IMG/VR virus record: IMGVR_UViG_3300047323_000477
Coordinates: 304 to 64,303 of that record
DNA: 64,000 nucleotides
Direction: 5' to 3' (one strand)
Origin: a virus
Lineage: Duplodnaviria > Caudoviricetes
Each line of letters starts with the position of its first letter. The stretch's first letter is position 1. Under the pieces are notes generated by a model. That model saw nothing but the letters and a program-made list of their open reading frames with translations. It did no database searches and was not told where the DNA came from. Shown in pieces: positions 14,749-39,739 of this stretch. Made by a program: the position numbers and the translations under genes.

Positions 14749-14836
14749 GACGTTCCTCCGGCAGGCAGGGTCCAGCTGCGGTGTGGGGGCTGCGCCCAAC
14801 CTACGGCACCGTAGGGCCGGTATTGCCCCTGCTCAG

Positions 14837-14880
14837 GGCATTGCAAGGAACAGACCCCCCGTTCTGTTCTTTGCAATGCC
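14837..14880. promoter_or_regulatory. 18-bp-arm inverted repeat between the regulator and the PKS (operator or terminator)
   Basis: GGCATTGCAAGGAACAGA-N8-TCTGTTCTTTGCAATGCC, one mismatch. Confidence 0.7.
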
Positions 14881-14893
14881 TTGACGTGCCAGG

Positions 14894-15715
14894 TCAGTAG
14901 GCACGGAGCATGTGAGTCCGGATATGGGCGCGTCTCTTCCCGGGATGGAACACGAGAACAATCAGGCGGGCGCCGGGCGCCGTCATCGGCTCCGCGGCGC
15001 ACATCGTGACCCATCCCGGCCCGTCGATGGCGTGGAGAAGGGGGCGTTCGTCACCGTCGGGATGTATGTGCGCACCGCCGGCATCCCAGATCGGCGCACA
15101 CTCCGGGTCGGCCAGGACTTCCTTCTCCAGCTGCTGGAGCGTCTCGTCGTCGGGGCGCGCGGCGAGCGCGGCCCGCAGCTGGGGCAGGACCAACGGCGCC
15201 CAGGAGGTCGCCCAGTCCGTCAGTGTGTTCCGCCCGTCGGGGTCGAAGAGCATCCACCGCATGGTGTTCGTCGGGACACGGCAGCCGGGGAACAGGCGGG
15301 CGAACGGGGCGTTGTACGCGATCAGTTCCCACGACGCGTCCGTCACGTAGGCCATGTGCCGCATTCCGTCGACGGCCTCCTGCCACACCCCGGGGATCTC
15401 TTTCCCGGAGCGGGGGGTGAGCGGGCCGGGCGGGTTACCGATCCCCGCGTACCGGCACAGCGACACCCACTCCTGCTCGTTCAGCGCGAACAGCGTGGCA
15501 ATGTCACGCAGGAGGTCGGCCGGCGGGTTCGGGTAGGACCCGGACTCGAGCCTGCGGTACGTCCCGAGGGTTCGGTGGCACAGCTGGTCGACCTGGTACT
15601 GGGTGAGCCCGGGGGCGCGCCGCCCTTGTCCGGTCGGGCGTTCGAACCCGTGCCCTTCCGGCTCGACGAGGGCACGGCGTTCCCTGAGGAGATCCCGTAG
15701 CGCCTTCTTGTTCAT
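14894..15715 (-). CDS. MmyB-family transcriptional regulator (XRE HTH plus PAS-like ligand-binding domain)
   Basis: LRDLLRERRA...GRRAPGLTQ..V...YRRLESG; AYVTDASWELIAYN...F...NTMRWMLF. Confidence 0.92.
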   Translation of the reverse strand: MNKKALRDLLRERRALVEPEGHGFERPTGQGRRAPGLTQYQVDQLCHRTLGTYRRLESGSYPNPPADLLRDIATLFALNEQEWVSLCRYAGIGNPPGPLTPRSGKEIPGVWQEAVDGMRHMAYVTDASWELIAYNAPFARLFPGCRVPTNTMRWMLFDPDGRNTLTDWATSWAPLVLPQLRAALAARPDDETLQQLEKEVLADPECAPIWDAGGAHIHPDGDERPLLHAIDGPGWVTMCAAEPMTAPGARLIVLVFHPGKRRAHIRTHMLRAY

Positions 15716-24075: not shown

Positions 24076-25566
24076 TCAGAACGGGGCGTTGTTGCAGTAC
24101 GCGTCGACCTGCTCGGGGGTGCCGTACTGCGCGGCAAACTGCGCCCTGAGGCGGGCCGTCTCCTCCGCGTCGTCGACGTCCCGCCGGCACCTGGGGCACA
24201 TCGTGTCGTCGCTGTCCTTGGCGATCGGATCACCGCAGGAGCAGTCGCGGAAAGGCCGGTGGACCCGCTGTTCGGGCAACTCCGACGCTGCGCTGTCATC
24301 GTGCGACTCGGCGGCCTGGGCCCGGCGCTGCGCCGTACGGGCCGCGAGACGCTCCGGGCACGTCTGGCACTCCTGGTTCGTATCGACGTCCACTCCGGCC
24401 TCGCACCGCGGGTTCGCACACCCGTACCGATCCCCGGACTTCAGTGGCCGAACCATGGCAACAGCAGCACCGACAAGGGAGTCAATGCCCCCGGCGTAGA
24501 ACTTTGACGCCCAGCCGTGGTGGTTCCATCGCTGATGGATACGAGCACCCAGCTGCTCCACCGTCCGGTCCGCACCCGGCACGTCGCCTGCGAGGGCGTC
24601 CAGGATCACTTGCGACAGCGTCGGGACGTTCGGCAGCGGGTCGATGTGCTCACCCGTCTGCGGGTCCGTCCAGCCGGTCAGGACGTGCTCGGGGAAGTGC
24701 GCCCGCACCGAAGCAACCAGAGTCAGCTGCTCCCGGGTGTGCTTCGTCTTGTTGCTGCCGCTTTTCTGCCCTCGAGCCGGCCGGTCGGTGCCGTCGTGCT
24801 GGGGAGAGGAGGGGCTGGTCTTGCTGGACGCGGCGCAGCCGCCTTCAGCCTCGCGCACGCTACTACCGTCAGAGGGCCTACGGCCGTCCCCAGCGCTACG
24901 CGCTGCAAGCGCATCCCCACCGGTAGCCGTACCAAAAGAAGGAACCAGAGGGACTTCGCGTTCCGGCTGGTCAGCGCCCGGATCCGGGTCGCAATTCGAA
25001 CCCCGCGGGTCGGAATTCAAACCCGCCGGGTCGGAATTCCGACCCGCATCAGTCTCCGGGGAGCTCCTGTCACCGCCCGGGTCGGAATTCCGACCCGCAG
25101 CCTTCTCGGCCTCCATCCGGTTGATGTAGGAGAGCTTGACCTCGGCGTTCCGCCACCCCGAGTAGCCCTCCGCGGGCATGTCGTTGATGCGGATCCGGAT
25201 CGGCCTCTGAGCCGCCCCAGCACGAGACGACGTCTTCACGGGGCCTCCCTCGGGCGTGGAGATCAGGCCGGCCCCCGAGAGGCCCGTGATGATGCTCCGG
25301 ACTCGGGTCAGGCTGCTGGGCTTCCCGTTCGGACCGGGAATGAGTTCGCAGAGGACGGTCAGAGTCAGCTTCCGGACCGGGTTCTTGTACTTCTCGAGCA
25401 CCAAGGCGCGCAGGATGATGTATCCGCGGACGTCCGGGTCGCGGAGACCAGGGCAGAGGGCGATCCAGTCGTGGACCCGGGTGGTGTACCAGCCGTCGTT
25501 TTCGGGTCCGTAGAGCTCCACCGGGGTCGCGCCCTCGGGGCCGTACTGGAACTGGTCGGCGCTCAC
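24076..25566 (-). CDS. Phage replication initiator protein (N-terminal wHTH, C-terminal Zn fingers)
   Basis: wHTH-like N-terminus; internal iterons as in lambda O-type initiators; C-terminal Cys clusters; ends ...NAPF. Confidence 0.78.
   Translation of the reverse strand: MSADQFQYGPEGATPVELYGPENDGWYTTRVHDWIALCPGLRDPDVRGYIILRALVLEKYKNPVRKLTLTVLCELIPGPNGKPSSLTRVRSIITGLSGAGLISTPEGGPVKTSSRAGAAQRPIRIRINDMPAEGYSGWRNAEVKLSYINRMEAEKAAGRNSDPGGDRSSPETDAGRNSDPAGLNSDPRGSNCDPDPGADQPEREVPLVPSFGTATGGDALAARSAGDGRRPSDGSSVREAEGGCAASSKTSPSSPQHDGTDRPARGQKSGSNKTKHTREQLTLVASVRAHFPEHVLTGWTDPQTGEHIDPLPNVPTLSQVILDALAGDVPGADRTVEQLGARIHQRWNHHGWASKFYAGGIDSLVGAAVAMVRPLKSGDRYGCANPRCEAGVDVDTNQECQTCPERLAARTAQRRAQAAESHDDSAASELPEQRVHRPFRDCSCGDPIAKDSDDTMCPRCRRDVDDAEETARLRAQFAAQYGTPEQVDAYCNNAPF
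24986..25096. repeat. Four 18-bp palindromic iterons (putative replication origin)
   Basis: GGGTCGGAATTCCGACCC, perfect at 25028 and 25079, variant at 24986 and 25007; spacing 21, 21 and 51 bp. Confidence 0.85.
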
Positions 25567-26234: not shown

Positions 26235-26534
26235 CTAACGGATCATGCTTGCTGCTGCCGCCCGGATCGTCACGAACGGGCCTTGCGGAACGGCGCCGCC
26301 CGACGGGCAGGCGAACCAATTGTGTAGAGCGACGTCCGCGTCCGTGCCGGATCGGACCTGACCGATGAGCTGGCCGTTGAACGAGACCAGGAACGGTCCC
26401 AGCTGCTCCGACTCGTCGACGCAGGCGTACGCCAGGCCCGGCTTGGACTTCAGGGTGGCGATGACCTCTTCCCGACGGACCGCTTCGACTGCACGGTCCA
26501 GCTCCAGCTGAGCTGCTGATGGTTGGTCGCTCAT
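26235..26534 (-). CDS. Hypothetical protein
   Basis: RBS AAAGGA; ATGA coupling to the GntR gene. Confidence 0.65.
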   Translation of the reverse strand: MSDQPSAAQLELDRAVEAVRREEVIATLKSKPGLAYACVDESEQLGPFLVSFNGQLIGQVRSGTDADVALHNWFACPSGGAVPQGPFVTIRAAAASMIR

Positions 26535-27301
26535 GGACGGTCCTTTCGGGGTAGCGGCAACGCCTCGTACGACAACTCCATTCGGTCGCCCGCGGCAACT
26601 ACACGCAGTAGCTCGATGGGGCGGCCAGAGTCACTACGGCTGATCCTCTCAATGGTGAGCACGGGTAGGGAAACCCCTGTGCCGAGCTGCGCTCCTTCCT
26701 CCTTCGTTGGCATGCGGGCAGCAACCCGTTCATCTGCCTCAACAGCCGCCATTCCAGCGGCGGCGAGGGCGCGATAGACGCCACCGTCGACCTTGCCCGG
26801 TCGGTCCAGGCCGGCCGCTACGGCGACATCGAGCGGGTACCAGGCGTGCTGGATCTGCACGACCTGTTGCTCAATGAGCGCTTCCCGGCGCCGGCATACG
26901 AGGTCGTTCTCCGACTCCAGCCCCAACAGGGCGGCCACGTCTGGATCACGTACCTGTTCCACGGTGACCGTCTTCATCACGCCTTCGAGGCCCTGAGCCT
27001 TGCAAGCGGCCTCGAACGGCCCCAGTTGCCCATCGGACTCGATGGATCCTTTGTATCGGCTGAGCGGGATGCGCACCTTGCGCCTGTCCCGTACGACCGT
27101 TCCGTACCGCCGTCGAGCGACGACCAGCCCCTCCTGCACGAGCACATCCACCGCAGTTCGAACTGTCTGCTTGGACGCGCTGAACCGATCCATCAGGTCG
27201 GTGGTGTGGGGCAGCAAGCTCCCGGGCGGGAGATCGCCACTCTCGATCTGATCGCGCAGTGCGTCCGCGATGTCGCGGTACATCGGCTGGGTCTTCGGCA
27301 T
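26531..27301 (-). CDS. GntR/HutC-family repressor (KorSA/KorA-like, wHTH plus UTRA)
   Basis: YRDIADALRDQIESGDLPPGSLLP...TVRTAVDVLVQEGLV; UTRA domain ARMPT..E; divergent from the transfer operon as for pSAM2 korSA. Confidence 0.92.
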   Translation of the reverse strand: MPKTQPMYRDIADALRDQIESGDLPPGSLLPHTTDLMDRFSASKQTVRTAVDVLVQEGLVVARRRYGTVVRDRRKVRIPLSRYKGSIESDGQLGPFEAACKAQGLEGVMKTVTVEQVRDPDVAALLGLESENDLVCRRREALIEQQVVQIQHAWYPLDVAVAAGLDRPGKVDGGVYRALAAAGMAAVEADERVAARMPTKEEGAQLGTGVSLPVLTIERISRSDSGRPIELLRVVAAGDRMELSYEALPLPRKDRP

Positions 27302-27329
27302 ATGAACCTCCTTCCTGCTTAGTCAGCAT

Positions 27330-27376
27330 TATTCCTGGGACTAAGCTTGACATGCAAGTCTAGTCCTAGGAATATT
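27330..27376. promoter_or_regulatory. Divergent promoter region with palindromic operator
   Basis: TATTCCTGGGACTA...TAGTCCTAGGAATA inverted repeat enclosing TTGACA (27347) with AATATT 18 nt downstream; AT-rich. Confidence 0.75.
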
Positions 27377-27481
27377 AGAAGTGTCCTCATCGCCTCACGG
27401 CATGAGAACGGCCCCCGGTGGTTGGACACCGGAGGCCGCGTTACAGACCCACCCGCCTGCCATAACAGGAGGTTGATCCGC

Positions 27482-27997
27482 GTGAACAAGCCTAGCGGGC
27501 TCACCGGACACACCGCACATACCCCCGACAGGGACCTGCCGAGCAGCGAGTTCCTCGCCGGCCTCGTTCAGCGCCTGTCCCGCCCCGACAACGCCACCCG
27601 CACCTTCACCCCCGACACGCTTCGCACCGTGCTCCTCATGAGCGCCCGCCTCACCCACGAGTGCGCGAAGTACAACCGGGACGCCTCCCAGGCCTGGCAC
27701 GAGAACCGGCACGGGAACTACCACACGAAGGACGCCCGGACCCGGGCTATCCGCGACGCCAACGACCTTGCCGACTACGCGTGGGACGAAGCGACCCGCG
27801 ATGCCGAGGCCGCCTACGCGCTCCTCGTGACCCCGGACGTCATGGCCATCACCGCGGCCGACCTGGTGGACAGCCTGACCGCCGACGAGGCGCTGCGCCG
27901 CACCGTCGCCGACCCGACCGTCCGACCGCGCCGGCTGATCGCCGCCGGTATCAAGCGCGGCAGCGGCCAGCTCGTCGTCAAGGCGGTGGCGGCATGA
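27482..27997 (+). CDS. Hypothetical protein, first gene of the transfer operon
   Basis: RBS AGGAGG before the GTG at 27482. Confidence 0.72.
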   Translation: MNKPSGLTGHTAHTPDRDLPSSEFLAGLVQRLSRPDNATRTFTPDTLRTVLLMSARLTHECAKYNRDASQAWHENRHGNYHTKDARTRAIRDANDLADYAWDEATRDAEAAYALLVTPDVMAITAADLVDSLTADEALRRTVADPTVRPRRLIAAGIKRGSGQLVVKAVAA

Positions 27998-28386
27998 GCG
28001 TTCCAGACGACATCCGCGCCCTCGTCTATGCCCTGTACAAGCTGGGCGGCGGTGAACTCCGCCGCGGCCAGGCCGGCATTCGCGTCAACCTGTCGGGCCT
28101 GAACACGGGATCGAAGACCCCGTGGACGGACTGCTTCAGCGTCGACATGAGCGTTGAGACGTTCGCCCGGCTCGTCAAGGCAGCCGAGCAGGAAGTACAG
28201 CCCGCACAGGCCCCGCTGGTGGCGGCCCAGTCCGCCTCGGGTACGGACATCGACCCGCTTCTCGAGCAGGACCTGGAGGAGCACTGCATCGGTCTCGACA
28301 CGGACTTCCTGATGTCGATGGCCGCGCAGGACCCGCACCGGGCTGTGGCCGCGTTCGACGAGATCACCCGCGAGGGCGAGCTGTGA
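27994..28386 (+). CDS. Hypothetical protein
   Basis: ATGA coupling. Confidence 0.7.
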   Translation: MSVPDDIRALVYALYKLGGGELRRGQAGIRVNLSGLNTGSKTPWTDCFSVDMSVETFARLVKAAEQEVQPAQAPLVAAQSASGTDIDPLLEQDLEEHCIGLDTDFLMSMAAQDPHRAVAAFDEITREGEL

Positions 28387-28520
28387 CCGCCGCCGAGCAG
28401 CAGGCCAACGCCAACGCTGCCGCCGAACTGCAGGCCGCTCTCGAGCGCGCTGCCGCCGACCTGAAGGCCGCACAGGAAGCCCTGGCCCGCCTCACCGAAG
28501 TCTCCGGAGGCCAGAAGTGA
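28383..28520 (+). CDS. Small helical protein (45 aa)
   Basis: GTGA coupling on both sides. Confidence 0.55.
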   Translation: MTAAEQQANANAAAELQAALERAAADLKAAQEALARLTEVSGGQK

Positions 28521-28906
28521 CCGCCGTTCACACCGAGGGCAACGCCGTTCCGCCCCTGGATGACGACCTCGCCTACGCCCTCGACCGCACGGCCGATGTC
28601 CACGCCGGCATCGACCTCATCCGCGACGGGATCCGCCTGATCGCCCTCGACCGCCTCGACATCGACAAGACCCAGACCGTCATCGGCTTCCTCGCCGGAA
28701 TGCCCGAAGGCAACGACGTCCTCACCGCCCTCGCCCACCTTGTGGCCCGACTCTCCAACGCCGACACCAACCCGTCCCTCCGCACCCTGCCCCTCGACCA
28801 GCAGAAGACCGCCCAGCACCACGGCGAACAGGCCGCCCTCCACCTGACCGACGAATGGCTCCACCAGCACGCATCCGAAGCCTCCGCCGCCATCGACGGC
28901 ATCTGA
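28517..28906 (+). CDS. Hypothetical protein
   Basis: RBS GGAGG; coupled ORF. Confidence 0.72.
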   Translation: MTAVHTEGNAVPPLDDDLAYALDRTADVHAGIDLIRDGIRLIALDRLDIDKTQTVIGFLAGMPEGNDVLTALAHLVARLSNADTNPSLRTLPLDQQKTAQHHGEQAALHLTDEWLHQHASEASAAIDGI

Positions 28907-28924
28907 CCCGAAAGGACCAACGAC

Positions 28925-29074
28925 ATGCCCGACACCCGAGAGCCCGTACAGCTCGCGGCGGACGTCATCCGCGAGGCCGTGACCTGCGAGCGAGAGCAGT
29001 GCCTGCCGGAGGACCACCAGCGCTTCGTCGCCGAGAACATGCGGATCGCATCCGAGCAGATCAACAACTCCTAA
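28925..29074 (+). CDS. Small protein (49 aa)
   Basis: RBS AAAGGA; MPDTREPVQLAADVIRE. Confidence 0.55.
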   Translation: MPDTREPVQLAADVIREAVTCEREQCLPEDHQRFVAENMRIASEQINNS

Positions 29075-29165
29075 CCCCCCGCCGGGGTCCGGTTGCCGAG
29101 CCGACAGACGACCGGACCCCACCCCCCGACCACCCGCCAGAACATCCCCGGAAGGAACCAGAACC

Positions 29166-29321
29166 ATGAGCGACGCAATCCAGGCCGCAGCAGACGCCGT
29201 CCGAGCCCACCAGCAGGCCCCCGACACCGCGACCCTCCACGACATGCAGCAGAAGGTCCAGGACGCCCAGAACCAGGGCGCCAGCCTCCAGGACATCGCC
29301 GCCGCCAACCGCAACGCCTGA
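29166..29321 (+). CDS. Small protein (51 aa)
   Basis: RBS AAGGA; MSDAIQAAADAVRAH. Confidence 0.6.
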   Translation: MSDAIQAAADAVRAHQQAPDTATLHDMQQKVQDAQNQGASLQDIAAANRNA

Positions 29322-29430
29322 CCACCACAGCCCCGGCATTCACGCCGCGAAGGCGCCGGATCGACTCCGGCCCGGGGCACGCACCGCACCACCCGGCCAC
29401 CCGCCAGCACCAGCCAGGAAGGACCACCCC

Positions 29431-29592
29431 ATGGACGCCAACACCGCCCCCGCCCCGCACCAGCCCGCCAACGACGCCGACGCCCGCGAAGCCGCCCGCC
29501 AGATCCTCGGCGATGGCTTCGACCACGTCCTGACCGGCGACTGGCACCAGACCCTCGCCGAGGCCGCCGCCCTCTGGGCCCCCGCCGCCTGA
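29431..29592 (+). CDS. Small protein (53 aa)
   Basis: RBS AAGGA; TGATG overlap with the next gene. Confidence 0.55.
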   Translation: MDANTAPAPHQPANDADAREAARQILGDGFDHVLTGDWHQTLAEAAALWAPAA

Positions 29593-29723
29593 TGCGCAGC
29601 CACTACGCCGCCTACATCTTCCTGACCCTCGCCCTGCTCGCCGCCTACACCGACCAACCCGTCCCCGCGCTCGTCAGCGCAGGACTCGCCGCAATCACCT
29701 GGAAAGGAAACCGAAAGCGATGA
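29592..29723 (+). CDS. Small membrane peptide (43 aa, Spd-like)
   Basis: Hydrophobic; overlaps the start of the spdB-like gene. Confidence 0.5.
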   Translation: MRSHYAAYIFLTLALLAAYTDQPVPALVSAGLAAITWKGNRKR

Positions 29724-30856
29724 CCACCAAGCCCGCCCAGCAGGCAGCCGCCACCAACGCCCCCGTGCGCTCGCTCACCGGCGGGCAGAAGTGGGTGCTC
29801 GCCCTTGCCACCATCCCGATGATCGCCGTCGGTATCGCCGGCGCCATCGGTACCTACGCCAACGCCACCGCCGAACTCCACCGCTCCGAGACCGCCATCG
29901 GCGTCGTCGCGGCCGGTGAGGGCGCCACCCTCGTCGCCGCCATCGTGATGATCGGCGTCACGATGCTCGGCCAGGCAGCCCCCTTCATCGTTCGATCCGC
30001 CCTCTGGGCCCTTCCCGCCGCAGCCTCCACCATGGGCATCGTCATCGCCCCCCACGCCAAGGAAGCCGTCGTCTACGGGCTCACCCCCCTCGCGATGACG
30101 GCATCCGCCGAAGGCATCAGCTTCCTCGCCCGCCGGATCGTCTCCCACACCACCGGAGTCGACGTCGAGGCGCAGCGCCGCAACGCCGAGACGATGCGCC
30201 AGGTCGCCTACCACGCAGCCCGTGCGGAGCGGCACCCCGACGAGAAGGTCCGGGCGAAGTCGGCTCTGACGGCGTGGAAGCTCATGAGCCAGATCGGAAG
30301 CGGAGACGCCGAGCTCGGCTCAGGACTCATCTCTGTGCAGCGGGACCGGCTCACCGATGGAGCCGACGCGGCTCTCGTGGCCATGCTTGGCGGCACCCGT
30401 GAGCCCTCCCTGGCTCGGCCGGTGAGCCGGGCCATCGAGTCGGGTGAGCCGACCGTTGAGCCGACTCGTGAGCTGCCCGGCAGCGCCGTGAGCCTGACCG
30501 GGAACACGGAGCCGAACCAGGACGCCACCCCTCGCACTCTGACCGACCCGGCAACGATCACCGCACCGGCTGACCAGCAGCTTCGCCGTGAGCCCGTCTT
30601 GATCCCGGCTGAGCCGACCTTCGCCAAGACCGTCGAGCTGAGCACTGAGACGACCGCCACTGAGCCCGCTGAGACGGAGACCGGCTCAGACGAGAAGGAG
30701 CAGCAGATCGCCACGCTGGCTCACCGGCTCACGCTCGGCGACCGGCTCACCAAGACCACCGCGGCTCAGATCCTCGGAGTGAGCCCGGCCACCGCAGGCC
30801 GTCGGCTCAAGGACGCCCGCGACCGCATCAGCGACGGAACGGGGATGTACCTGTGA
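29720..30856 (+). CDS. SpdB2/DUF2637-like plasmid spread membrane protein with C-terminal HTH
   Basis: Four N-terminal TM helices; low-complexity linker; LTKTTAAQILGVSPATAGRRL HTH; context between Kor and TraB. Confidence 0.78.
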   Translation: MTTKPAQQAAATNAPVRSLTGGQKWVLALATIPMIAVGIAGAIGTYANATAELHRSETAIGVVAAGEGATLVAAIVMIGVTMLGQAAPFIVRSALWALPAAASTMGIVIAPHAKEAVVYGLTPLAMTASAEGISFLARRIVSHTTGVDVEAQRRNAETMRQVAYHAARAERHPDEKVRAKSALTAWKLMSQIGSGDAELGSGLISVQRDRLTDGADAALVAMLGGTREPSLARPVSRAIESGEPTVEPTRELPGSAVSLTGNTEPNQDATPRTLTDPATITAPADQQLRREPVLIPAEPTFAKTVELSTETTATEPAETETGSDEKEQQIATLAHRLTLGDRLTKTTAAQILGVSPATAGRRLKDARDRISDGTGMYL

Positions 30857-30859
30857 GCC
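30285..30859. repeat. Dense TGAGCC/GGCTCA hexamer array
   Basis: By manual count, 11 TGAGCC and 8 GGCTCA in about 575 bp, in several reading frames. Confidence 0.85.
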
Positions 30860-31371
30860 AGATCAGCATCGACCAGAAGCGCCCGCGGGCCGTTTCCTCG
30901 TCCGCGTTCACGAGCCCCGACATCCGCCCCACCGGCCCGGCCGGTATCCAGACCCCGGCCGTGGAGCTGGGGCACGCGGATACCCCGCCATGGAGCCATC
31001 GGCTTCTGCCCCCGTTCATCCGAGGGTTACTCGCTGACCTCGGCTGGTGGCAGGACCCGGCACCGCAACTGCCGTCCGTCCACCTCGAGCAGACCCTGGC
31101 CGTCCTCAAGAAGTACGGGTGGTGCCAGTCCCTCGACGTCACCCCCACCGGCCGGCTCTGCATCCGCGGCGCCCAGAACGTCCTCGAGAAGACCGGCCAC
31201 ACCACCCCGGAGGCCCGCGAAAAGGCCGTCGGCTACATGCAACAGGCCCTCGCCCAGGCCGGAATCAGCATGCAGTTCTTCGCCTGGAACGACCTGCCTG
31301 ACCAGCAGTTTTCCGCAGTTGAGGCCCTTCTGACGGGGGCCGCCCGCCTTGCCCGAGAGAACGGAGAGTAA
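30853..31371 (+). CDS. DUF6197-like protein
   Basis: VLKKYGWCQ...GRLCIRGA...FAWND; in-frame TTA codon at 31027. Confidence 0.72.
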   Translation: MSQISIDQKRPRAVSSSAFTSPDIRPTGPAGIQTPAVELGHADTPPWSHRLLPPFIRGLLADLGWWQDPAPQLPSVHLEQTLAVLKKYGWCQSLDVTPTGRLCIRGAQNVLEKTGHTTPEAREKAVGYMQQALAQAGISMQFFAWNDLPDQQFSAVEALLTGAARLARENGE

Positions 31372-31374
31372 AAA

Positions 31375-31980
31375 ATGTCCGCCCCCGAAGACGAATTCGA
31401 GCGCATCATCAAGGAATTCCGCGTGAACCCCTCCGAAATCATCGACCAGAACCCCTACAACGCCCCCACGCAGCACCAGAAGGCGGGCCTCACGAAGCGC
31501 GGAAAGGCCGCCCTCGGAATCGGTGCCGCGGTAATCGCCGGTGGCAGCCTGATCGGCTACCAGGTGCATTCCGCGAACGTCGCGGAACAGGAGACCAAGG
31601 CACAGGAACTCGCCGTGAAGTCGCAGGCCCTGGAGCTGGAGAAACTCCGCGAGACGAACCGCGCGAACGAATCCGACCGTAAGGAGAAGGCCAGCCAGGC
31701 GAAGGCCCGCCAGGCGTCCATCAACACGTGCGTGAAGGACAGCTCGGACCTGGTCGGCAAGGGCTTCGGCTCCCCGTCGCACCGGGACCTCGTGGACGAC
31801 TGCCAGGCCCAGTACGCCGACATCCCGGCCAGCGGCGACATGGAGGCCGCGGCCTCCGCTCAGGACACCGACAACAGCAACGGAGGCGGCGTGAACCAGG
31901 GCCTCCTGATCGGCGGCGGTGTCCTCGTCCTGTTCCTCGTGGGCGCCGCCAAGAAGGGCACCCGAACCAACCCCGCCTAG
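31375..31980 (+). CDS. Membrane protein with coiled coil (2 TM), transfer-associated
   Basis: RBS GGAG; TM - coiled coil - Cys pair - TM layout. Confidence 0.75.
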   Translation: MSAPEDEFERIIKEFRVNPSEIIDQNPYNAPTQHQKAGLTKRGKAALGIGAAVIAGGSLIGYQVHSANVAEQETKAQELAVKSQALELEKLRETNRANESDRKEKASQAKARQASINTCVKDSSDLVGKGFGSPSHRDLVDDCQAQYADIPASGDMEAAASAQDTDNSNGGGVNQGLLIGGGVLVLFLVGAAKKGTRTNPA

Positions 31981-32109
31981 TTACTTCCCACTTCCTCCCA
32001 GCCCGAGAATGCCCGATCTTCGCCTCCCAGGGGGCGTCTGAACGGGCCTTTTCGGGGGCGGGAAGTCAGTAGGAAGTGATCACCGACACCAGAGAGAGTG
32101 AGGAATGTT

Positions 32110-33933
32110 GTGGCATCCGACGCGATCAATCCGGCAGTTCCCGGCCCGGCCGACCCGCCCGACGCGAACGCCCCTGGCCGCCCCGCCGAGGGTCTGATCG
32201 CGTCCCTGCTCGCCCCCGTCGCACCCGCCCGGCCGACGTTCGACCTGACCGCTCCTGCGGGGGCGGGCGGGGCCACGGACGCGGCCGTCACGGGCGTCTC
32301 CAGCGCCGCCTTCCACGGCACTGAGGAGGCCACCCAGCAGGACAGCAAGGCCGCGGCCAACAGTGCCCAGAAGAAGGGCATCTGGCGGGCGTGGATGCTG
32401 GCCGGCGCAGCCCGCTGGGGACGGGGCGGCGGTACGCAGAACAAGCGCCTGGACATGAAGAAGGCAAAGGCTCAGGCGCAGCAGGTGAAGGAGACCCGAA
32501 CGGTTTCGATAAACCGCTCTCCTGCCCCGCTCAGTAAGGGTTCTTTCGGCGCCGGTTCGAAGGGATCTAGCAATAAGTCTCTGAATTCGAAGGGTAATTC
32601 TGGCGGTGCGGTGAAGGGCCCGCAGAATTCCAACGGGAAGGCTCACCAGGGTCCCGCCGGGCGTTCCGGAAACGGTGCCGGAACAGGCCCTGGTGGCAGC
32701 GGTGGCCGCGGACCGAGTGGCGGCCGCACAACCAACGGGCCGGGTGGGCGAGGTGACAGCGCTTCCCCGAAGAGCCCCAAGACGGATGCCGGTGGCCGCC
32801 GTACCCCGAAGCAGGAGAAGACCAGCCTGACGAAGGGCGGCACCACCAACAGCCCGAAGGACACGTCGGGTGGTTCCGCGGGCGGGAAGAAGGGCGCCCC
32901 GGGGCCGGCAGGCAGCCCCGGCAAGAGCGGCGGTACGGGCAGTGGCGGTTCGACCGGCGGCAGCAAGGGATCCGGTTCCGGCTGGTTCTCCAGCAGCAAG
33001 AACGGCAAGACCCCCGCCGCCAAGGACGCCCCCACCAGCAAGGACACCAAGCAGGCCCCGGCCCAGGGCGACAAGACGGCGAAGGGCAAGGACACCAAGG
33101 CCGCCCCCACCCCCGGCTCTGCCGCCACGGACCCGGCCAAGACGAACGGTAAGACGAAGGTCAACCTGCTCAAGCGCAAGCGCCAGACCCCCGACATGGC
33201 CGGCCAGAAGAGCAGCCCGGACACCCCGGCCAACGGGAAGCGGTTCTCCACCCGGGAGTCCCGCGAGACCGGATACCGCGACGGCACCCGCGCCGCGAAG
33301 GTCGCCGCCCACACCAAGGCGTACCGCGACGGCGTCAAGGACGGATGGGCCGACACCACCCAGGCCGCCGACCAGCAAAAGAGCCGCCTGGACGAGGCAC
33401 ACCAGGCACGCATCAAGGCCCGAGACGAGGAGAAGCCCGTGACCGGCATAGAAACCAGCGCGGACTACCACCAGCCCGAACCGATCGGCGTGAAGGAGGT
33501 CACCACCTCACACGTCGTCCTCGGCGACGGCGCGGCAAGGGAGTCCCTGAGCCGCGCCGAGGTTCGCTCCCTGAAGGGCTTCGAGCGGCGCCTGGAAGCG
33601 AAGACCGGAACCATGACGAAGATCGGGGAGCAGACGAAGTCCCTGAAGGGGCACGCCGACGAGCAGGCGAAGAAGGTCACCAAGCTCCTCGAGGACGCCA
33701 AGGCCGTCAAGGGCGGCGAGAAGCTGGCCGGCAGCCTCGCCAAGCTGCAGGAGGCCGCCGCAGTCCAGGCCGGCAAGGCCGAAGACATCCACAAGCGGGC
33801 CGTCCGCGCAGCCGAGGGCTGCGGCGTGGCCCTGGCCAACGTTGAGACCCGGTACGGCGGCATGTACAAGGCCGTCGTCGACTCCGACGAGACCGCCCCC
33901 GCCGAACTCCGCTTCTACAAGGACCAGGGGTGA
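32110..33933 (+). CDS. Large Gly/Lys-rich transfer-associated protein (TraA-like position)
   Basis: Long ORF with low-complexity middle and helical C-terminus; lies upstream of traB; start codon uncertain (32098 or 32110). Confidence 0.72.
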   Translation: MASDAINPAVPGPADPPDANAPGRPAEGLIASLLAPVAPARPTFDLTAPAGAGGATDAAVTGVSSAAFHGTEEATQQDSKAAANSAQKKGIWRAWMLAGAARWGRGGGTQNKRLDMKKAKAQAQQVKETRTVSINRSPAPLSKGSFGAGSKGSSNKSLNSKGNSGGAVKGPQNSNGKAHQGPAGRSGNGAGTGPGGSGGRGPSGGRTTNGPGGRGDSASPKSPKTDAGGRRTPKQEKTSLTKGGTTNSPKDTSGGSAGGKKGAPGPAGSPGKSGGTGSGGSTGGSKGSGSGWFSSSKNGKTPAAKDAPTSKDTKQAPAQGDKTAKGKDTKAAPTPGSAATDPAKTNGKTKVNLLKRKRQTPDMAGQKSSPDTPANGKRFSTRESRETGYRDGTRAAKVAAHTKAYRDGVKDGWADTTQAADQQKSRLDEAHQARIKARDEEKPVTGIETSADYHQPEPIGVKEVTTSHVVLGDGAARESLSRAEVRSLKGFERRLEAKTGTMTKIGEQTKSLKGHADEQAKKVTKLLEDAKAVKGGEKLAGSLAKLQEAAAVQAGKAEDIHKRAVRAAEGCGVALANVETRYGGMYKAVVDSDETAPAELRFYKDQG

Positions 33934-33939
33934 CCAGCC

Positions 33940-34317
33940 ATGGCTGACCTGACGTACAAGCAGCTCCAGAAGGCCGTGACTGACCTCGCGAAGGACGTTG
34001 CCAAGGGATCGGACGCCATTCGGACCGTTGCCCGGCAGATCGACGAAGAGGCGCAGGACACGGCCCGCGTTGCCGAGGCGATCGCCGGGGTGGGAGTCGA
34101 CCGCGACACCGTCTCCGAGACCAGCGAACTGTCAAAGATCATGCGTGGGGTGTCCGAAGCCGCCCTCGCCTACGCGTCCGCCGGCGACAACACGACCAAA
34201 GCCGCCAAGGCCGCATACGACCAGGCCCACACCACCCACAACGGGATACAGGAGGCCTACTCCCGCTCCACCGTCAACATCAGCAACCTCAACCGCGAAT
34301 GGCTGCGCCAGGAATAG
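33940..34317 (+). CDS. Small helical transfer-associated protein
   Basis: 125 aa helical hairpin directly upstream of traB. Confidence 0.75.
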   Translation: MADLTYKQLQKAVTDLAKDVAKGSDAIRTVARQIDEEAQDTARVAEAIAGVGVDRDTVSETSELSKIMRGVSEAALAYASAGDNTTKAAKAAYDQAHTTHNGIQEAYSRSTVNISNLNREWLRQE

Positions 34318-34400
34318 CGGACCCGACGGGCGGGACCAGGAGGCACCCCGGTCCCGCCCCCCATACCCCGGACTACCTACAACCCACGAAGGAGTATCCA

Positions 34401-36680
34401 GTGACCACCAACGCCACGACCACCCCGCGCGCCACGTCCGCTGAGCGCACCGCAGCCATTGTCACAACCGCCGCGCCCGTCGCCGTCGGCCTCGTGGCTC
34501 CGTTCCTCGACGGCGGCGCCGCACTGACCGCAGCCATTGCCTACGCTGGCGCGGCCAGCGTGACCGCCCTGAACTACTTTGAGCGCCTCCCGCAGGCCCT
34601 GACAGACAACCTCCCCGCAGAGGACATCGTCCAGGCCCACAAGACCCCGCTGTTCATCTGCACCATCACCACCGGAATGTCCCTCGGCATGGGCAGCATC
34701 ATGGGACCGGACGGCGCCGATGCATTGATGGCAGGAATGCTCGACCCGATGTCCATCCCTGGCATCGTGTCCCTCGGCTGGTGGGCTGCTGTCGCCCTCG
34801 TGCCGTGGAAGCTGCGCAACGTCCTCGGCCGCAAGCCCAAGGCAGCCACCCTCGTGCAGGGCGCCCCGGTGGGTGCACCCGCGCCCGCCCTGCCGCTCAC
34901 CGGCGCGCAGGCGATCCTCAAGCGGTGGGCAGAGCACGTATCCCACCCCCAGAACGGGGCACACCGGGGACAGGAGCTCACCGTCCGCACCTGCGGGACC
35001 ACCCGCTGGGTCGGCACCATCACCGCCCCTGTCGGATCGTCCGTCACCGTCACCGCGGAGACGGTGTCCTCCGTCTACCAGATCCCCGCCGCATGGATCT
35101 CCTTCAAGGCCGGCGCCCACGCAGGGGAGCGCCACATCGCCGTGAACCTGACCGCCCCCGCCGACCTCGACCCGTCCACCCTGACCGGGGCGTGGAAGAA
35201 GTGGGTGGCCAAGCCCAACGGCCTCATGGCCGGCACCCACCTCAAGGACCTCCGGGACGACCCCAACACCGGCGGGCAGGTCGCCCTCATCGTTGCCGGA
35301 GACGACCTCGACCGCCTTCGCCACCCCGACCGCATGGACCTTGCCGGAGCCATGCGCGTCACCAACCCGCTGCTGATCTCCTACGAGCCCCGCCAGAACC
35401 CCCGCGAAGCCGTCATCCGCAAGATGGACCGCAACCCCCTCGAGCAGGGCACCCCGTTCCCCGGCGTGCACGTCCTCAAGGCCAACGCCAACGGCTACAT
35501 CGAACTCGGCCGAGGCGTCTCTGGATTCCCCGCCCGCATCCAGCTCCACGACCCGGCACTCGGCGCCCAGCACTGCATCGTCGCCGGGGTCACCGGCTCC
35601 GGAAAGGGCGGCACCCTCCAGCTCATCGCCCTCGCCCACCACGTCAACGGATCCGCGATCATCTACGCCGACCCCAAGGGATCCTCGAACCCGGCGATCG
35701 AGACGATGGCCGCCTACTCCGGTCTCGGCCCGGACGACGCCATGGGGGCCCTCCGCCTCTGGTACCACGGCCTCCAGCACCGGGTTGCAGAGTCCGCGCG
35801 CCTCAGCATGAAGAACTTCAAGCCCAGCCCAGACCGCCCGTGGGCGCCCCTCATCCTCGACGAGGCCAGCAAACTCCTCGGAGAGAACGCCGAGCACCGC
35901 AAGGAAGCCACCTTCATCATCAACGCCGGCGCCACCTTGGGCCGCTCCCTCGGCATGCCCGTCATCCTCGCCAACCAGCTCATGCAGCTCGCTCAGCTCG
36001 GCGGAGACGCCGCGATCCGCGACAACGTCTTCTACGGCGGATCCCTGATCCTCCTCCGCTCCGACTCTCAGCAGAAGCACCTCATCGACCTCCCCGAGAA
36101 CTTCGCCGGCTGCAACCCCGCCGACATCCCCCCGGCCTGGTCTGGCGACCGCGACATGGTCTACGACCCCAACACCCCGCCGGACGACCCGAAGCGCACC
36201 TTCGGACTCGCGTTCGCCGCCAGCCCCGGCGCCCACGCCGAGATGATGCGGAACTGGATCCTCGAGGACGCCACCCCGCACATCGACACCGACAACATCG
36301 TCATCCCCGCCGACTGGCCGTTCTGGGACCAGCGCCACGAGCTCGCCACCCAGTCCGTCCTCCCCGACGACCAGGCCGGCAGCGACGATGACGACGACTT
36401 CGCCAGCGGCATGCTGTTCGGCTCCGTCAACGTGTCGAAGAAGGGCCCCTCGGCCGACGACAAGATCCTCCGGGCGCTTGAGGAGATCGCCGACCCGCTC
36501 GGCCTCGAGGTCATCTACAAGGACAAGGCCGAGATCGCCGTCCTCGCCAGGCTGGAAGGCTCCACCTTCGACAACGCCCTGTCCCGCCTGTACAAGGCCG
36601 AGAAGATCCACCGCCAGATGAGGGACGGCAAGGAAGTCCGCGGCTACTACGGCCTCGGCCCGGCCCCCGAAGACCAATGA
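34401..36680 (+). CDS. traB: TraB-like FtsK/SpoIIIE conjugal DNA translocase
   Basis: N-terminal TM helices; Walker A GVTGSGKG; Walker B LILDEA; C-terminal wHTH (STFDNALSRL); RBS AAGGAG. Confidence 0.85.
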   Translation: MTTNATTTPRATSAERTAAIVTTAAPVAVGLVAPFLDGGAALTAAIAYAGAASVTALNYFERLPQALTDNLPAEDIVQAHKTPLFICTITTGMSLGMGSIMGPDGADALMAGMLDPMSIPGIVSLGWWAAVALVPWKLRNVLGRKPKAATLVQGAPVGAPAPALPLTGAQAILKRWAEHVSHPQNGAHRGQELTVRTCGTTRWVGTITAPVGSSVTVTAETVSSVYQIPAAWISFKAGAHAGERHIAVNLTAPADLDPSTLTGAWKKWVAKPNGLMAGTHLKDLRDDPNTGGQVALIVAGDDLDRLRHPDRMDLAGAMRVTNPLLISYEPRQNPREAVIRKMDRNPLEQGTPFPGVHVLKANANGYIELGRGVSGFPARIQLHDPALGAQHCIVAGVTGSGKGGTLQLIALAHHVNGSAIIYADPKGSSNPAIETMAAYSGLGPDDAMGALRLWYHGLQHRVAESARLSMKNFKPSPDRPWAPLILDEASKLLGENAEHRKEATFIINAGATLGRSLGMPVILANQLMQLAQLGGDAAIRDNVFYGGSLILLRSDSQQKHLIDLPENFAGCNPADIPPAWSGDRDMVYDPNTPPDDPKRTFGLAFAASPGAHAEMMRNWILEDATPHIDTDNIVIPADWPFWDQRHELATQSVLPDDQAGSDDDDDFASGMLFGSVNVSKKGPSADDKILRALEEIADPLGLEVIYKDKAEIAVLARLEGSTFDNALSRLYKAEKIHRQMRDGKEVRGYYGLGPAPEDQ

Positions 36681-36884
36681 CCCGCAGGGGGAACCGGGGG
36701 AGGAGCAGCCCGGACAAACCCCTGATCGTGCGCCACGATTGAGTTGCACGGCCGGTCAGGGAGCCCCGGTGTCCCCGCGCCCACTCCCCGGCCAGGCCGT
36801 GCAACGCATAGCCACCCGGAACGCGGGCAGCAGACCGAACAACCCCGCTCGAGCCGGTACTTCCCCCGACCTGCTCGAGACACC

Positions 36885-36920
36885 CGGCCCCCATCAGGCA
36901 CCCCCCGCCTGGTGGGGGCC
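36885..36920. terminator. Bidirectional terminator hairpin
   Basis: GGCCCCCATCAGGC...GCCTGGTGGGGGCC between convergent genes. Confidence 0.65.
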
Positions 36921-36934
36921 GCGGCATGCCCCGG

Positions 36935-37594
36935 CTACTTCACCGGCTTCCAGATTCCGCAGTCCCGAGTCGTGAACTGCCCATCCGACGCACGGATTGT
37001 CACCGTGATCTGCTGCGCCGACGTCGCGAAGCTGTTGTCGATGATGTCCCCACCCCTGGAAGTCCGCTCCCAGTAGCAGTCCGCCAGGTCACCCTTCGCC
37101 CGGTACGTGCCCGGCCCGATCGCATCGTCGGCCGTCCCCGGCTTCGCCTTCACCTTGTACGTGCCATCCGAGTACGACCGGGACGCCTTCCCGTCCAACG
37201 CCTTCTCCACCGTCGTCATCAACTCCGGGCACAGCTTCGGCACCCCCATCCGCAGCACCGCAGCCTCGTCCTCGGTCGGCTTCCGCATCATCAGCCACTC
37301 AGCCGGATCGTCATCCACATCCTTGCGCTCCGGCAGCGCTTTGCAGATGTCCGCCACATAGTCGGACGCCGACTCACCAGGCATCCACCCCTTCGCGGTC
37401 GCCTCCTGGTCGATCTCGTCCTCCCAAGTCGGCGGCTCCTCCACCGTCAGAGAAGGCGCCGGTGCGGCCTCCGATACCGACGGACTCGAGGCCGCAGGCT
37501 TCGCATCATCACCGCCATCGCTTCCGCACCCCGACACCAGCGCCAGCGCGACGAATCCCGCCGCAACAGCCCCCACCCCACCCATATGCCTCAT
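36935..37594 (-). CDS. Lipoprotein
   Basis: Lipobox LVSG-C; C-terminal GTY...PGTYR...CYWER domain. Confidence 0.85.
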   Translation of the reverse strand: MRHMGGVGAVAAGFVALALVSGCGSDGGDDAKPAASSPSVSEAAPAPSLTVEEPPTWEDEIDQEATAKGWMPGESASDYVADICKALPERKDVDDDPAEWLMMRKPTEDEAAVLRMGVPKLCPELMTTVEKALDGKASRSYSDGTYKVKAKPGTADDAIGPGTYRAKGDLADCYWERTSRGGDIIDNSFATSAQQITVTIRASDGQFTTRDCGIWKPVK

Positions 37595-37707: not shown

Positions 37708-38193
37708 ATGCCAGCCTCCAGAGCAAAGCAAGCCGAGACCGCAGGCCGCCGCGCCGACCTCATCCGACTGCGCCGCAGCGGCGTCCGATTCGATGACCCG
37801 CTCATCCTCGCCCTCGGGTACAGCAGCTCCGGCGCAGCGCGGAAGGACCTCATCCGCGCCCTCGAGCAGAACCGTGACGAGGAAGCTGCCGAGGTCTCCG
37901 TCTACCGGCAGCAGGAGAACGAGCGGTACGACGTCATGCTCCGCGCCATCTGGGCAGAGGTCGAAGCCGGTGACCTCCGGTCCATCGAGACGGCCCTGAA
38001 GATCTCCGACCGGCGTTCCAAGCTGAACGGGTGGGACGCCCCCGTGCGCACCGAACTGTCCGGCCCCGACGGAGGCGCCGTCCCTCTCGGCAGCGGGTCG
38101 CTGACCGAGCTGAACACCCTCATCAGCCTTGCGGGAGAGACCAGTACCGACGAGCAGGGCAGCCAGGGGCCCACGCGTGACCACGACGGATGA
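37708..38193 (+). CDS. Terminase small subunit
   Basis: HTH N-terminus; RRSKLNGWDAPVRTELSGPDGG; directly upstream of TerL. Confidence 0.8.
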   Translation: MPASRAKQAETAGRRADLIRLRRSGVRFDDPLILALGYSSSGAARKDLIRALEQNRDEEAAEVSVYRQQENERYDVMLRAIWAEVEAGDLRSIETALKISDRRSKLNGWDAPVRTELSGPDGGAVPLGSGSLTELNTLISLAGETSTDEQGSQGPTRDHDG

Positions 38194-39739
38194 CCTCCTC
38201 GAGGACACCCTCCTCGAGCACTACCGGACCCTTCCCGTCGCCGCCCGCAAGCGCATCGCCCAGCAGGCCGGCCCCGACGTGCGCCGCCGACTGGCCTGGG
38301 TGGAACGCCAGATGGCCATGGACCTGTCCCCGGGCGCCCTTGCCGCAGTCCTCACCGAGAACCGGGAGAAGCAGGCCCCGCACCTCGACATGATTGATGA
38401 CGTGTTCCGTCGCATTGCCGCAGGCGAGCGCATGCAGGTGATGATTACCTGCCCGCCGCGGCACGGAAAAAGCCAGAGGGCGTCCCGCTGGGGTCCGCTC
38501 TGGTACCTGCGGCGCAACCCGACCGCCCGCGTCATGCTCGCCTCCTACGGTGCCGAACTCGCCGACGACCACGGCCGATGGGTCCGCGACCAGCTTCGCG
38601 AGCACTCCGACACCCTCGGCGTCCGCCTCGACCCCGGATCCCACGCCGCGAACCGGTTCGACCTCGAAGCACCGCGCGGGTCGTCCGTGCGCGGCGGCAT
38701 GGTCACCGCCGGCGTCGGAGGCTCGCTTACTGGCAAAGGATTTTCGCTCGGTGTGATCGATGATCCTTTTAAAGGCTCCGACGACGCGAACAGCCCAGCC
38801 CAACGCCAACGCGTCTGGGACTGGTACCGGTCCGTCTTCTACACGCGTCGTGCCCCCGGCGCCTCCATCGTCTTGATCAACACCAGGTGGCATGAGCTCG
38901 ACCTGTCCGGACAGATCCTCGCCACCGAACCCGAGAACTGGACCCTCATCGACCTGCCGGCCCTCGCCCTGTCCGCCACCGACCCCCTCGGACGCGAACC
39001 CGGCGAAGCCCTGTGGCCCGCCCAGTACGATGCCGAAGAACTCCACCGCACCAAGAAGGCCGTCGGCGAACGAGTCTGGTGGGCGCTCTACCAACAGCAG
39101 CCCCGCCCCCTCGAAGGCGGCGTGTGGAAGTGGCCCTGGATCACCGAGAACCGCATCGACCCGATCGCGTTCCGGGCCGTCGACCTCTCCCGCGTCGTCG
39201 TCGCCCTCGACCCCGCCGGAGGCGACACCCCAGGACACGACGAATCCGGAATCGTTGCCGCAGGCCGCTCCACCGACGGCCACTACTACGTCCTCGCCGA
39301 CCGCACCGGCAACCACTCCGCCGACGCCCGAGGGCGCGAGACGTGCATCCTCGCCCTTGACCTGCAGGCGGACGCCATCGTCGTGGAGACGAACTACGGC
39401 GGCGACATGGCACGCCAGAACGTCGTCCAGGCATGGGCCGAGCTCGAGCGGCAAGGCCGAACCAAGGGCCAGCCGATGCCCAGGATCGTCGAAGTGACCG
39501 CGAAGAAGGGGAAGCGGCTGCGCGCCGAGCCCATCGCCCAGCTGTACGAAACCGGGCTCGTCCACCACACTGCAGAGTTCCCCGCACTGGAGACACAGAT
39601 GGTCACCTGGGTGCCTGGCCTCGACTCACCCGACCGCATGGACGCCGCCGTCCACGCCCTCACCGAGCTCGCCAACCCTGCCTCCGCGTCCGTGGGTAGC
39701 TCCTCGTACGCCGACCAGAGGCTAACGGGCCGCCGTTGA
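38177..39739 (+). CDS. Terminase large subunit
   Basis: PPRHGKS Walker A; IDDP Walker B; TRWH; ALYQQQP; DPA...DES nuclease; SPDRMDA. Confidence 0.96.
   Translation: MTTTDDLLEDTLLEHYRTLPVAARKRIAQQAGPDVRRRLAWVERQMAMDLSPGALAAVLTENREKQAPHLDMIDDVFRRIAAGERMQVMITCPPRHGKSQRASRWGPLWYLRRNPTARVMLASYGAELADDHGRWVRDQLREHSDTLGVRLDPGSHAANRFDLEAPRGSSVRGGMVTAGVGGSLTGKGFSLGVIDDPFKGSDDANSPAQRQRVWDWYRSVFYTRRAPGASIVLINTRWHELDLSGQILATEPENWTLIDLPALALSATDPLGREPGEALWPAQYDAEELHRTKKAVGERVWWALYQQQPRPLEGGVWKWPWITENRIDPIAFRAVDLSRVVVALDPAGGDTPGHDESGIVAAGRSTDGHYYVLADRTGNHSADARGRETCILALDLQADAIVVETNYGGDMARQNVVQAWAELERQGRTKGQPMPRIVEVTAKKGKRLRAEPIAQLYETGLVHHTAEFPALETQMVTWVPGLDSPDRMDAAVHALTELANPASASVGSSSYADQRLTGRR

Follow-up and report, generated by a model that had tools for sequence, protein, structure and literature searches.

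The stretch of DNA analysed here (64,000 nucleotides of the virus record IMGVR_UViG_3300047323_000477, hereafter the window) belongs to a pZL12-like Streptomyces plasmid-phage and carries, in the 3′ half of an SpdB-like gene, a dense array of the hexamer TGAGCC and its reverse complement GGCTCA. The gene (29720..30856, + strand) encodes a protein of 378 amino acids (aa) with a predicted C-terminal helix-turn-helix (HTH) domain, and the array (30285..30859, both strands) comprises nineteen hexamers, eleven on the + strand and eight on the - strand. The array is selected at the DNA level and is strictly coupled to this HTH class, with at least 15 sites in every complete gene encoding it. The explanation that we favour, with evenly balanced confidence, is that the array would be a set of cis sites read by the gene's own predicted HTH, by which the DNA would be tethered to the membrane spread machinery.

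On the + strand TGAGCC starts at positions 30285, 30400, 30423, 30445, 30457, 30489, 30589, 30610, 30661, 30780 and 30854, and GGCTCA, representing the sites on the - strand, starts at 30317, 30348, 30683, 30718, 30726, 30744, 30763 and 30804. A first-pass annotation of this stretch had reported nineteen hexamers at these positions, lying in different frames and on both strands with a flip of orientation near 30670, and had taken them for a DNA-level signal and not a peptide repeat. All eleven plus eight coordinates were exact, the sites occupy all three frames and both strands, and eight + sites (30400-30661) are followed by five - sites (30683-30763). Eighteen of the nineteen lie inside the gene and one (30854) lies across its stop codon. 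An outlying twentieth hexamer (30078..30083, - strand), also inside the gene, is common to three of ten aligned plasmid genes.

In the whole window the two words occur 41 times, compared to 44.0 ± 6.3 in shuffled sequences, and 20 of the 41 sites are packed into about 800 bp, while the remaining window is at or below chance. The annotation had proposed k-mer enrichment statistics as a check, and in these the array ranked first among the clusters of all 6-, 7- and 8-mers of the window (17 sites in 500 bp, Poisson p ~1e-27). The array is dispersed and not tandem, since Tandem Repeats Finder (TRF) reported no more than a weak stretch of period 12 (30444-30500, 68% matches) and 2.2 copies of a period-18 unit. 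Polar guide sequences of the FtsK type (similar to the FtsK-orienting polar sequences, KOPS) were also considered and rejected: such words would be skewed and distributed over the entire replicon, and the 63 kb beyond the cluster have just 21 sites, a number at or below chance, on both strands.

The motif is an asymmetric hexamer with a core that is strictly TGAGCC, and it does not extend to a longer motif because its flanks are weak (G at ~0.55 at the two positions 3′ of the core). From 5′ to 3′, the array opens with three leading sites (30285..30353; +, -, -) in the DNA of the last helix of the N-terminal part (residues 189-212), where the two - sites sit in the codons of LGSGL and RLT and are kept in 10/10 aligned genes. 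The eight-site + block (30400..30666) coincides with the DNA of a disordered linker (residues 226-321, nucleotides 30395-30682), and its site positions turn over between homologues. The five-site - block (30683..30768) opens the HTH-coding DNA and falls in the codons of LAH, RLT, RLT and AAQ; the final three sites (30780..30859; +, -, +) end with the one at 30854, which includes the TGA stop of the gene. In 20 of 32 homologous genes the stop codon likewise lies within a TGAGCC, and one plan of orientation recurs throughout the homologues: '<' first, a long '>' block, a '<' block and then '><>'.

For the recoding tests the SpdB-like gene proper was counted as having 19 sites (30078 and 18 of the array's nineteen, without the stop-spanning 30854). 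Synonymous resampling with the codon usage of eight window genes gave an expectation of 1.98 ± 1.31 sites (maximum 8 in 2000 replicates), and a synonymous shuffle of the codons within the gene gave 3.29 ± 1.59 (maximum 11 in 2000). In a family-wise version, in which the commonest hexamer of a gene was compared to the commonest hexamer of its synonymous shuffles across 29 window genes, the SpdB-like gene reached z = 11.0 and the other 28 did not exceed z = 4.3. In every gene tested, site numbers were 6- to 10-fold over the synonymous-recoding nulls. Together with the mixture of frames and strands, these results bear out the DNA-level signal. In the ten aligned genes, identical codons were used at 13 of 18 invariant residues inside hexamers, compared to 29 of 63 outside, which is a trend in the expected direction only. 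The RNA structure of 30270-30870 was found to be ordinary (z = -1.54, with 1 in 20 shuffles folding equally well).

Site numbers are maintained across three collections of homologous genes. In the plasmid collection (PLSDB), all ten full-length genes (that of the window plus nine, at 61-83% aa identity) have 17-22 sites, each above its own recoding null. Their alignment yielded 40 distinct site positions, of which 10 are common to at least nine genes and 17, chiefly from the variable linker, are found in at most three; homologues differ in where the sites lie but hardly in how many they have. Of 80 loci on contigs of species-representative genomes, 79 could be scored, the other extending past the end of its contig. 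All 22 with this HTH have 15-21 sites, compared to 0-2 in 57 genes of other classes, two of whose frames are truncated. In the viral contigs (53 loci), 15-35 sites were counted in 27 of 27 complete genes with this HTH and 17-26 in three of three variant genes with a double HTH, compared to 0-2 in 20 genes of other classes; three further genes that are cut by contig ends keep 3-13 sites. The three collections are not to be summed because they overlap: four or more of the viral loci are records that also supplied plasmid or genome loci, and there are duplicates within the viral set itself.

One lineage has its HTH doubled in tandem (our loci L081 5315-5831, L086 5750-5919 and L093 5660-5763, and the viral loci L164 and L170); there the linker consists of (Glu-Pro)n and TGAGCC recurs every 6 nt. 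Some 1.1 kb downstream, this lineage has another 8-15 TGAGCC sites, again in a cluster. In L081 this second cluster falls within the 5′ part of the next large gene, which encodes a Glu-Pro-rich N-terminal region; elsewhere only the site cluster was seen.

Sixty-two open reading frames (ORFs) of the window were also compared with eight whole plasmids, and 29720-30856 was the only one with the distribution of the array, being found on each of the five plasmids that bear it and on none of the three that lack it. The association extends to genes in which the N-terminal part has been exchanged: in L096 and L098 the linker, the HTH and the array are fused to a different membrane domain, a DUF2637 (E 4e-39), and a swapped membrane domain may also explain those viral loci whose match is confined to residues ~230-378. 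When a 10-kb query (27000-37000) was compared with plasmid CP108469 (H13), nucleotide similarity was limited to the SpdB-like gene (86.8%), in a neighbourhood that is otherwise unrelated. Judged from these comparisons, the linker, the HTH and the array appear to form a movable module.

The assignment of the 378-aa protein as probably SpdB-like with a putative C-terminal HTH, made in the first-pass annotation, is well supported by the structural models and family comparisons. The ORF (GC content at third codon positions 0.86) is predicted to encode a membrane/helical N-terminal part, a disordered linker and the HTH; PHROG 16651 matches residues 17-256 (E 2.8e-52), and 1476 homologues were found at E <= 1e-5. 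In the AlphaFold2 model (47 sequences), helices extend over residues 21-223, residues 226-321 are disordered (predicted local distance difference test, pLDDT, < 50) and residues 323-374 form a confident three-helix bundle, which is encoded by 30686..30841 (+ strand) and is the proposed reader of the array. The pLDDT of the HTH region is 88-91 in the whole-protein model, with a mean of 80 in a domain-only model; taken over both models, the values for the three-helix bundle are 88-93.

In the local Pfam and NCBIfam searches the whole protein had no match at E <= 0.01, and the Pfam matches of the last 63 residues were all sub-threshold, all to HTH families and all over the same stretch (among them Xre-like-HTH and HTH_Tnp_ISL3, E 1.3e-3). 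A PDB sequence search with these C-terminal 63 aa returned a single match (E 0.45). With Foldseek, neither the whole model nor the domain model had a match at E <= 1e-3; the weak matches were nearly all to HTH DNA-binding domains, the best being the DeoR DNA-binding domain on its operator (probability 0.93, root-mean-square deviation 2.3 Å, 47 columns). The ESM Atlas groups the N-terminal part with clusters of DUF2637 (feature score 0.92) and SpdB_N (0.87), with a structure match to DUF2637 (template-modelling score 0.50/0.66). Since some Atlas clusters combine DUF2637 (PF10935) or SpdB_N (PF27080) with HTH_SpdB_C (PF27079), the pairing of a membrane domain with a C-terminal HTH is on record as a protein architecture. 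There are also phage clusters in the Atlas that pair DUF2637 with an Lsr2-type DNA-binding domain, so that a membrane anchor with an exchangeable DNA-binding tail seems widespread in actinophages.

The family was sorted by C-terminal sequence into eight named classes, some of which have a motif of their own. The HTH class of the window (31 genes) has on average 19.2 TGAGCC sites per gene, compared to 3.0 expected. The 'DPPLSYRQA' class (42 genes) has CGTCACG at 7.9 per gene (2.5 expected), with at least five copies in 40 of 42, and the 'VADSIRR' class (2 genes) has GTCCGGA at 10 per gene (1.0 expected). The alternative gene of plasmid CP130725 contains eleven copies of CGCATCA (2.6 expected, z = 10.2), which constitute the top cluster of that whole plasmid. 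All class-specific arrays are located in the 3′ halves of their genes; individual examples are L012 4184-5200 (CGCATCA, 11 copies), L036 and L037 (CCGGAC, 16-18 copies, with GTCCGGA, 10 copies), and L013, L017, L018 and about 40 genome loci (CGTCACG, 8-15 copies). The annotation had proposed, as a check, to see whether homologues carry different hexamers co-varying with their HTH. Other classes do have their own motifs; four classes have no clear array, and no fine co-variation was seen within the HTH class of the window.

Because the array always travels with the DNA-binding tail of the protein, its sites are probably read by that tail; we infer both the binding of TGAGCC by the HTH and the purpose of this binding. 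The protein would have the design of a tether, in which a polytopic membrane part is connected to the HTH by a disordered linker of about 100 residues. With such an arrangement many anchored copies could bind one DNA molecule, and an HTH on a long flexible linker facing some 20 sites would provide a membrane tether of high avidity. Binding would hold the element at the membrane beside the Spd/TraB DNA-translocation machinery, where the tether might serve both spreading between hyphal compartments and stable inheritance. As the sites sit in the 3′ half of the gene itself, newly made protein would meet them beside it, and the protein and its sites could be transferred between elements as a single self-contained cassette.

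Several observations weigh against this explanation. Array and HTH share one 0.6-kb segment of DNA, so that their co-inheritance is partly automatic and carries less weight than would co-variation between unlinked components. Neither the recognition helix nor the hexamer varies much within the HTH class, and fine co-variation is lacking, since even the divergent double-HTH variants keep TGAGCC. The spacing of sites has no strong helical phasing (Rayleigh test on 589 spacings, R = 0.11 at 10.5 bp compared to 0.235 at the codon period). The HTH assignment itself consists of a model and of matches below every significance threshold. An array is no general requirement of the family, given the four of eight named classes without a clear one, and the CGTCACG class may be partly a peptide-level effect because its sites are mostly in one frame (GTC ACG, Val-Thr). 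Finally, the DNA binding of SpdB2 of pSVH1 has been reported as non-specific (cited in PMC4170104).

A regulatory role of the same protein is the alternative that survives best. The HTH would then read the array within the gene in order to block or slow transcription into the downstream spd genes and traB, as a feedback on functions that are toxic when overexpressed. All the evidence for coupling of the array to its own HTH applies equally here, the gene precedes the genes leading to traB and runs in their direction, with frames that overlap or are closely spaced, and kil-kor control of traB is described as established for Streptomyces plasmids in PMC4447253. Nevertheless, about 20 sites over 575 bp in two orientations far exceed the need of a transcriptional roadblock, the module is found in other neighbourhoods and with a different membrane domain, and it is hard to see what a purely regulatory protein would do with a membrane anchor. 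We consider such regulation unlikely.

It is rather unlikely, too, that the reader is a DNA-binding protein of the host or one that the element encodes elsewhere, with the array serving in partition (as a centromere), in phage packaging (as a pac site) or in replication. Centromeres, iterons and pac sites do typically consist of short repeats in arrays; a factor that Streptomyces hosts have in common would be beyond the reach of plasmid comparison, and the window's record, at 64.3 kb compared to relatives of about 90 kb, may miss part of the element. However, ParB, terminase and GntR do not track the array, and a site for a host factor would not be expected to be so strictly tied to one HTH class. 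ParB cuts across the presence of the array, with 77% identity between one array-bearing and two array-less plasmids and 29% between two array-bearing ones; a partition centromere was rejected on this ground and on the ground that no ORF except the gene itself tracks the array. A pac or cos site was likewise rejected, as the terminase-region proteins of the window are nearly identical to those of the array-less plasmid CP108852 (96% and 95% for the terminase pair). The GntR gene is replaced in two array-bearing loci and present in one array-less locus.

The first-pass annotation had named two possible readers, the gene's own HTH and the transfer protein TraB, for which the array would be the clt locus. 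The comparisons favour the first, with array and HTH co-occurring without exception and the gene being the sole tracking ORF of 62, and speak against the second, which we regard as very doubtful. According to this second proposal the C-terminal winged helix of TraB would recognise the repeats and start transfer, as with the 8-bp TraB recognition sequence (TRS) of pSVH1. In its favour, the clt loci described so far group short repeats to which TraB binds (PMC4447253, PMC3583192), the array is located in the transfer region 3.4 kb upstream of traB, and no other strong clt-like cluster was found near traB in the window or the eight whole plasmids, the only other strong cluster of the window being a set of palindromes at 24985-25097. 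The array does not, however, follow the TraB type. The TraB proteins of the array-less plasmids CP108805, CP108852 and CP130725 are 67.7, 74.3 and 65.6% identical to that of the window, respectively, and those of CP108805 and CP130725 have a putative recognition helix (assigned by position) identical to the window's. These three plasmids (88-92 kb) have a different gene at the SpdB position and no TGAGCC cluster anywhere, with 32, 38 and 28 scattered sites, respectively. Conversely, CP108469 and CP108377 have both gene and array alongside a translocase at the TraB position that is only 22% identical, with no TraB of the window's type elsewhere. The core is, moreover, a hexamer with weak flanks and not an 8-mer.

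That the array has no protein reader, being a by-product of peptide or codon constraint, of slippage or gene conversion, or of RNA structure, is hardly credible: many + sites do encode Glu-Pro, the double-HTH variants have their sites in a (Glu-Pro)n microrepeat, TRF gives the weak period-12 stretch, and TGAGCC and GGCTCA could pair in the mRNA, but the sites occur in three frames and on both strands at numbers well over every recoding null, their counts hold at 15-35 across lineages while positions turn over, and the RNA fold is ordinary.

The genomic context of the array is that of a plasmid with phage genes. The window represents nearly all of a 64,303-base virus record, and its relatives are Streptomyces plasmids of 85-94 kb, among them pSLE1, which its authors describe as homologous and syntenic to the plasmid-phage pZL12 (PMC4487206). 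Three gene sets were recognised: a transfer/spread region, phage genes and a type III polyketide synthase. In the transfer/spread region the order is GntR, small ORFs, the 378-aa gene, four further ORFs (one with DUF6197) and a TraB-like translocase. The GntR/UTRA regulator (26531..27301, - strand; Pfam GntR E 3.5e-16, UTRA E 2.3e-18) is divergent from the spd-tra operon. The TraB-like FtsK-type translocase (34299..36680, + strand) has only weak P-loop matches (HerA_C, TraD and the FtsK/SpoIIIE-like PHROG), and the records of sister plasmids list its homologues as conjugative DNA transfer proteins; its true start is probably downstream of 34299, since the ORF begins about 34 codons before the homologues do. 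The location of the SpdB-like gene between a GntR-type regulator and traB is the same on most sister plasmids, and in L001 and L006 another HTH regulator is found in the place of GntR. Two genes downstream of the SpdB-like gene, an ORF at 31375-31980 has a weak PHROG match to an Rz-like spanin (E 2e-4), which is odd within a spread operon.

The phage genes of the window include terminase, capsid, tail tube, a 1577-aa gene in the tail region and lysis genes. A gene at the small-terminase position and the large terminase (Terminase_6N/6C) are located at 37708..39739 (+ strand). A comparison of the window with the eight plasmids shows a strongly mosaic element, in which the terminase is 95-96% identical to that of CP108852, the capsid protein and the protein at the portal position are 87-92% identical to those of CP108469 and CP109494, and the tail genes are 81-84% identical to those of CP070261, with modules shuffled among pZL12-like plasmid-phages. 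At 13699-15715 a type III polyketide synthase (chalcone/stilbene synthase domains) adjoins an MmyB-like regulator, and a comparable gene is on record for both pSLE1 and pZL12.

The second strongest motif cluster of the window is located at 24985-25097 and consists of four copies of a 20-bp palindrome, at spacings of 21, 21 and 51 bp. The copies at 25027-25046 and 25078-25097 are perfect (CGGGTCGGAATTCCGACCCG); those that start at 24985 and 25006 are degenerate. The set lies upstream of the GntR gene, within a doubtful reading frame of 496 aa, and is a candidate operator, iteron or clt. Two further words were examined and rejected. GACCCG is a common word (119 sites) and its cluster belongs to the palindrome set. 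CGGTGA (TCACCG on the + strand) forms a run at 58600-59411, in which 14 copies, 13 of them on one strand, fall in a tail gene; this run shows no enrichment compared to synonymous shuffles (z = 1.8) and is probably a coding or codon effect.

Spd proteins are needed for the spread of Streptomyces plasmids and plasmid-phages across hyphal cross-walls after transfer. To our knowledge, no specific DNA target is known for SpdB-type proteins, and the one studied member has been reported as non-specific. An array of 20 copies tied to its own HTH would represent a concrete and directly testable DNA target. A wider proposal is made here tentatively, below even confidence: that SpdB-family proteins are sequence-specific DNA receptors, each with an array of its own in the DNA that encodes its linker and DNA-binding tail, and that protein and sites together constitute one exchangeable 'membrane DNA-capture cassette' and the missing cis locus for intramycelial spreading, distinct from the clt of TraB. 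If this holds, cassette classes with TGAGCC, CGTCACG, GTCCGGA and CGCATCA would give elements private spreading specificities, and, with the sites inside the gene, the protein would act preferentially in cis, on the DNA molecule carrying its own gene. A conserved array tied to the HTH would in itself account for a linker that is variable in sequence yet rich in Glu-Pro, the DNA word and not the peptide being conserved there, and the case shows that a DNA-level signal can be the main force shaping coding DNA. The motif classes could in addition be used to type spread specificity in plasmids, actinomycete integrative and conjugative elements and actinophages.

Our searches of the literature on SpdB, HTH domains, repeats and spreading yielded neither a hexamer array of some 20 copies inside a gene and tied to the SpdB C-terminal HTH nor arrays that differ by class within the SpdB family, and in both respects Vogelmann 2011, Sepulveda 2011 and Zhong 2010 (on pZL12) could still contain an earlier mention. 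Among the matches listed (10 of 189), those of TGAGCC in the text of the Streptomyces plasmid literature look like primers or oligonucleotides, the match in PMC9045223 being an oligonucleotide. Already known are site arrays for transfer and spread proteins (clt, sps) and the membrane-plus-HTH architecture of SpdB. The Pfam 38.1 entries SpdB_N, HTH_SpdB_C and DUF2637 describe protein families and are silent on any cognate DNA array.

Plasmid centromere arrays, such as parC of R1, consist of many close short repeats that are bound cooperatively by a small DNA-binding domain to build a large nucleoprotein handle. The array of the window differs from these in that no partner nucleoside triphosphatase adjoins it, the ParB type does not follow it and its reader would be anchored in the membrane. 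Like the clt/TRS of TraB, it groups short repeats on a conjugative element of Streptomyces and would mark DNA for a membrane DNA-transfer machine. The clt repeats, however, are of 5-9 bp in 3-9 copies, mostly in non-coding DNA beside tra, and are read by TraB (pSVH1, pJV1, pIJ101 and pWTY27; PMC4447253, PMC3583192), whereas the window's array is intragenic, has about 20 copies and does not follow the TraB type. SpdB2 of pSVH1, an integral membrane spread protein that binds double-stranded DNA and TraB (Tiffert 2007, as cited in PMC4447253 and PMC4170104; Thoma 2015), resembles the protein described here in its membrane location, predicted for the latter, and in its operon position between a GntR regulator and traB; it differs in its reportedly non-specific DNA binding and in having no reported site array.

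The closest comparison is with SpdA2 of pIJ101, which has been reported to bind a palindrome (sps) within its own gene, as demonstrated by electrophoretic mobility shift assay (EMSA), and to affect plasmid stability (Thoma et al. 2014, PMC4170104). The two systems differ in that sps is a 12-bp palindrome in 1-3 copies and SpdA a small soluble protein, compared to an asymmetric hexamer in about 20 copies and two orientation blocks in the window, and in that the binding of SpdA2 was seen by EMSA, whereas that of the 378-aa protein, probably membrane-anchored, is predicted from its putative C-terminal HTH. What they have in common is a DNA-binding protein of the spread region (predicted as such here), a site inside or beside its own gene, the constant occurrence of site and gene together, and a role in plasmid stability (proposed here). 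The sps site shapes the peptide encoded by the DNA in which it lies, as the TGAGCC array does here.

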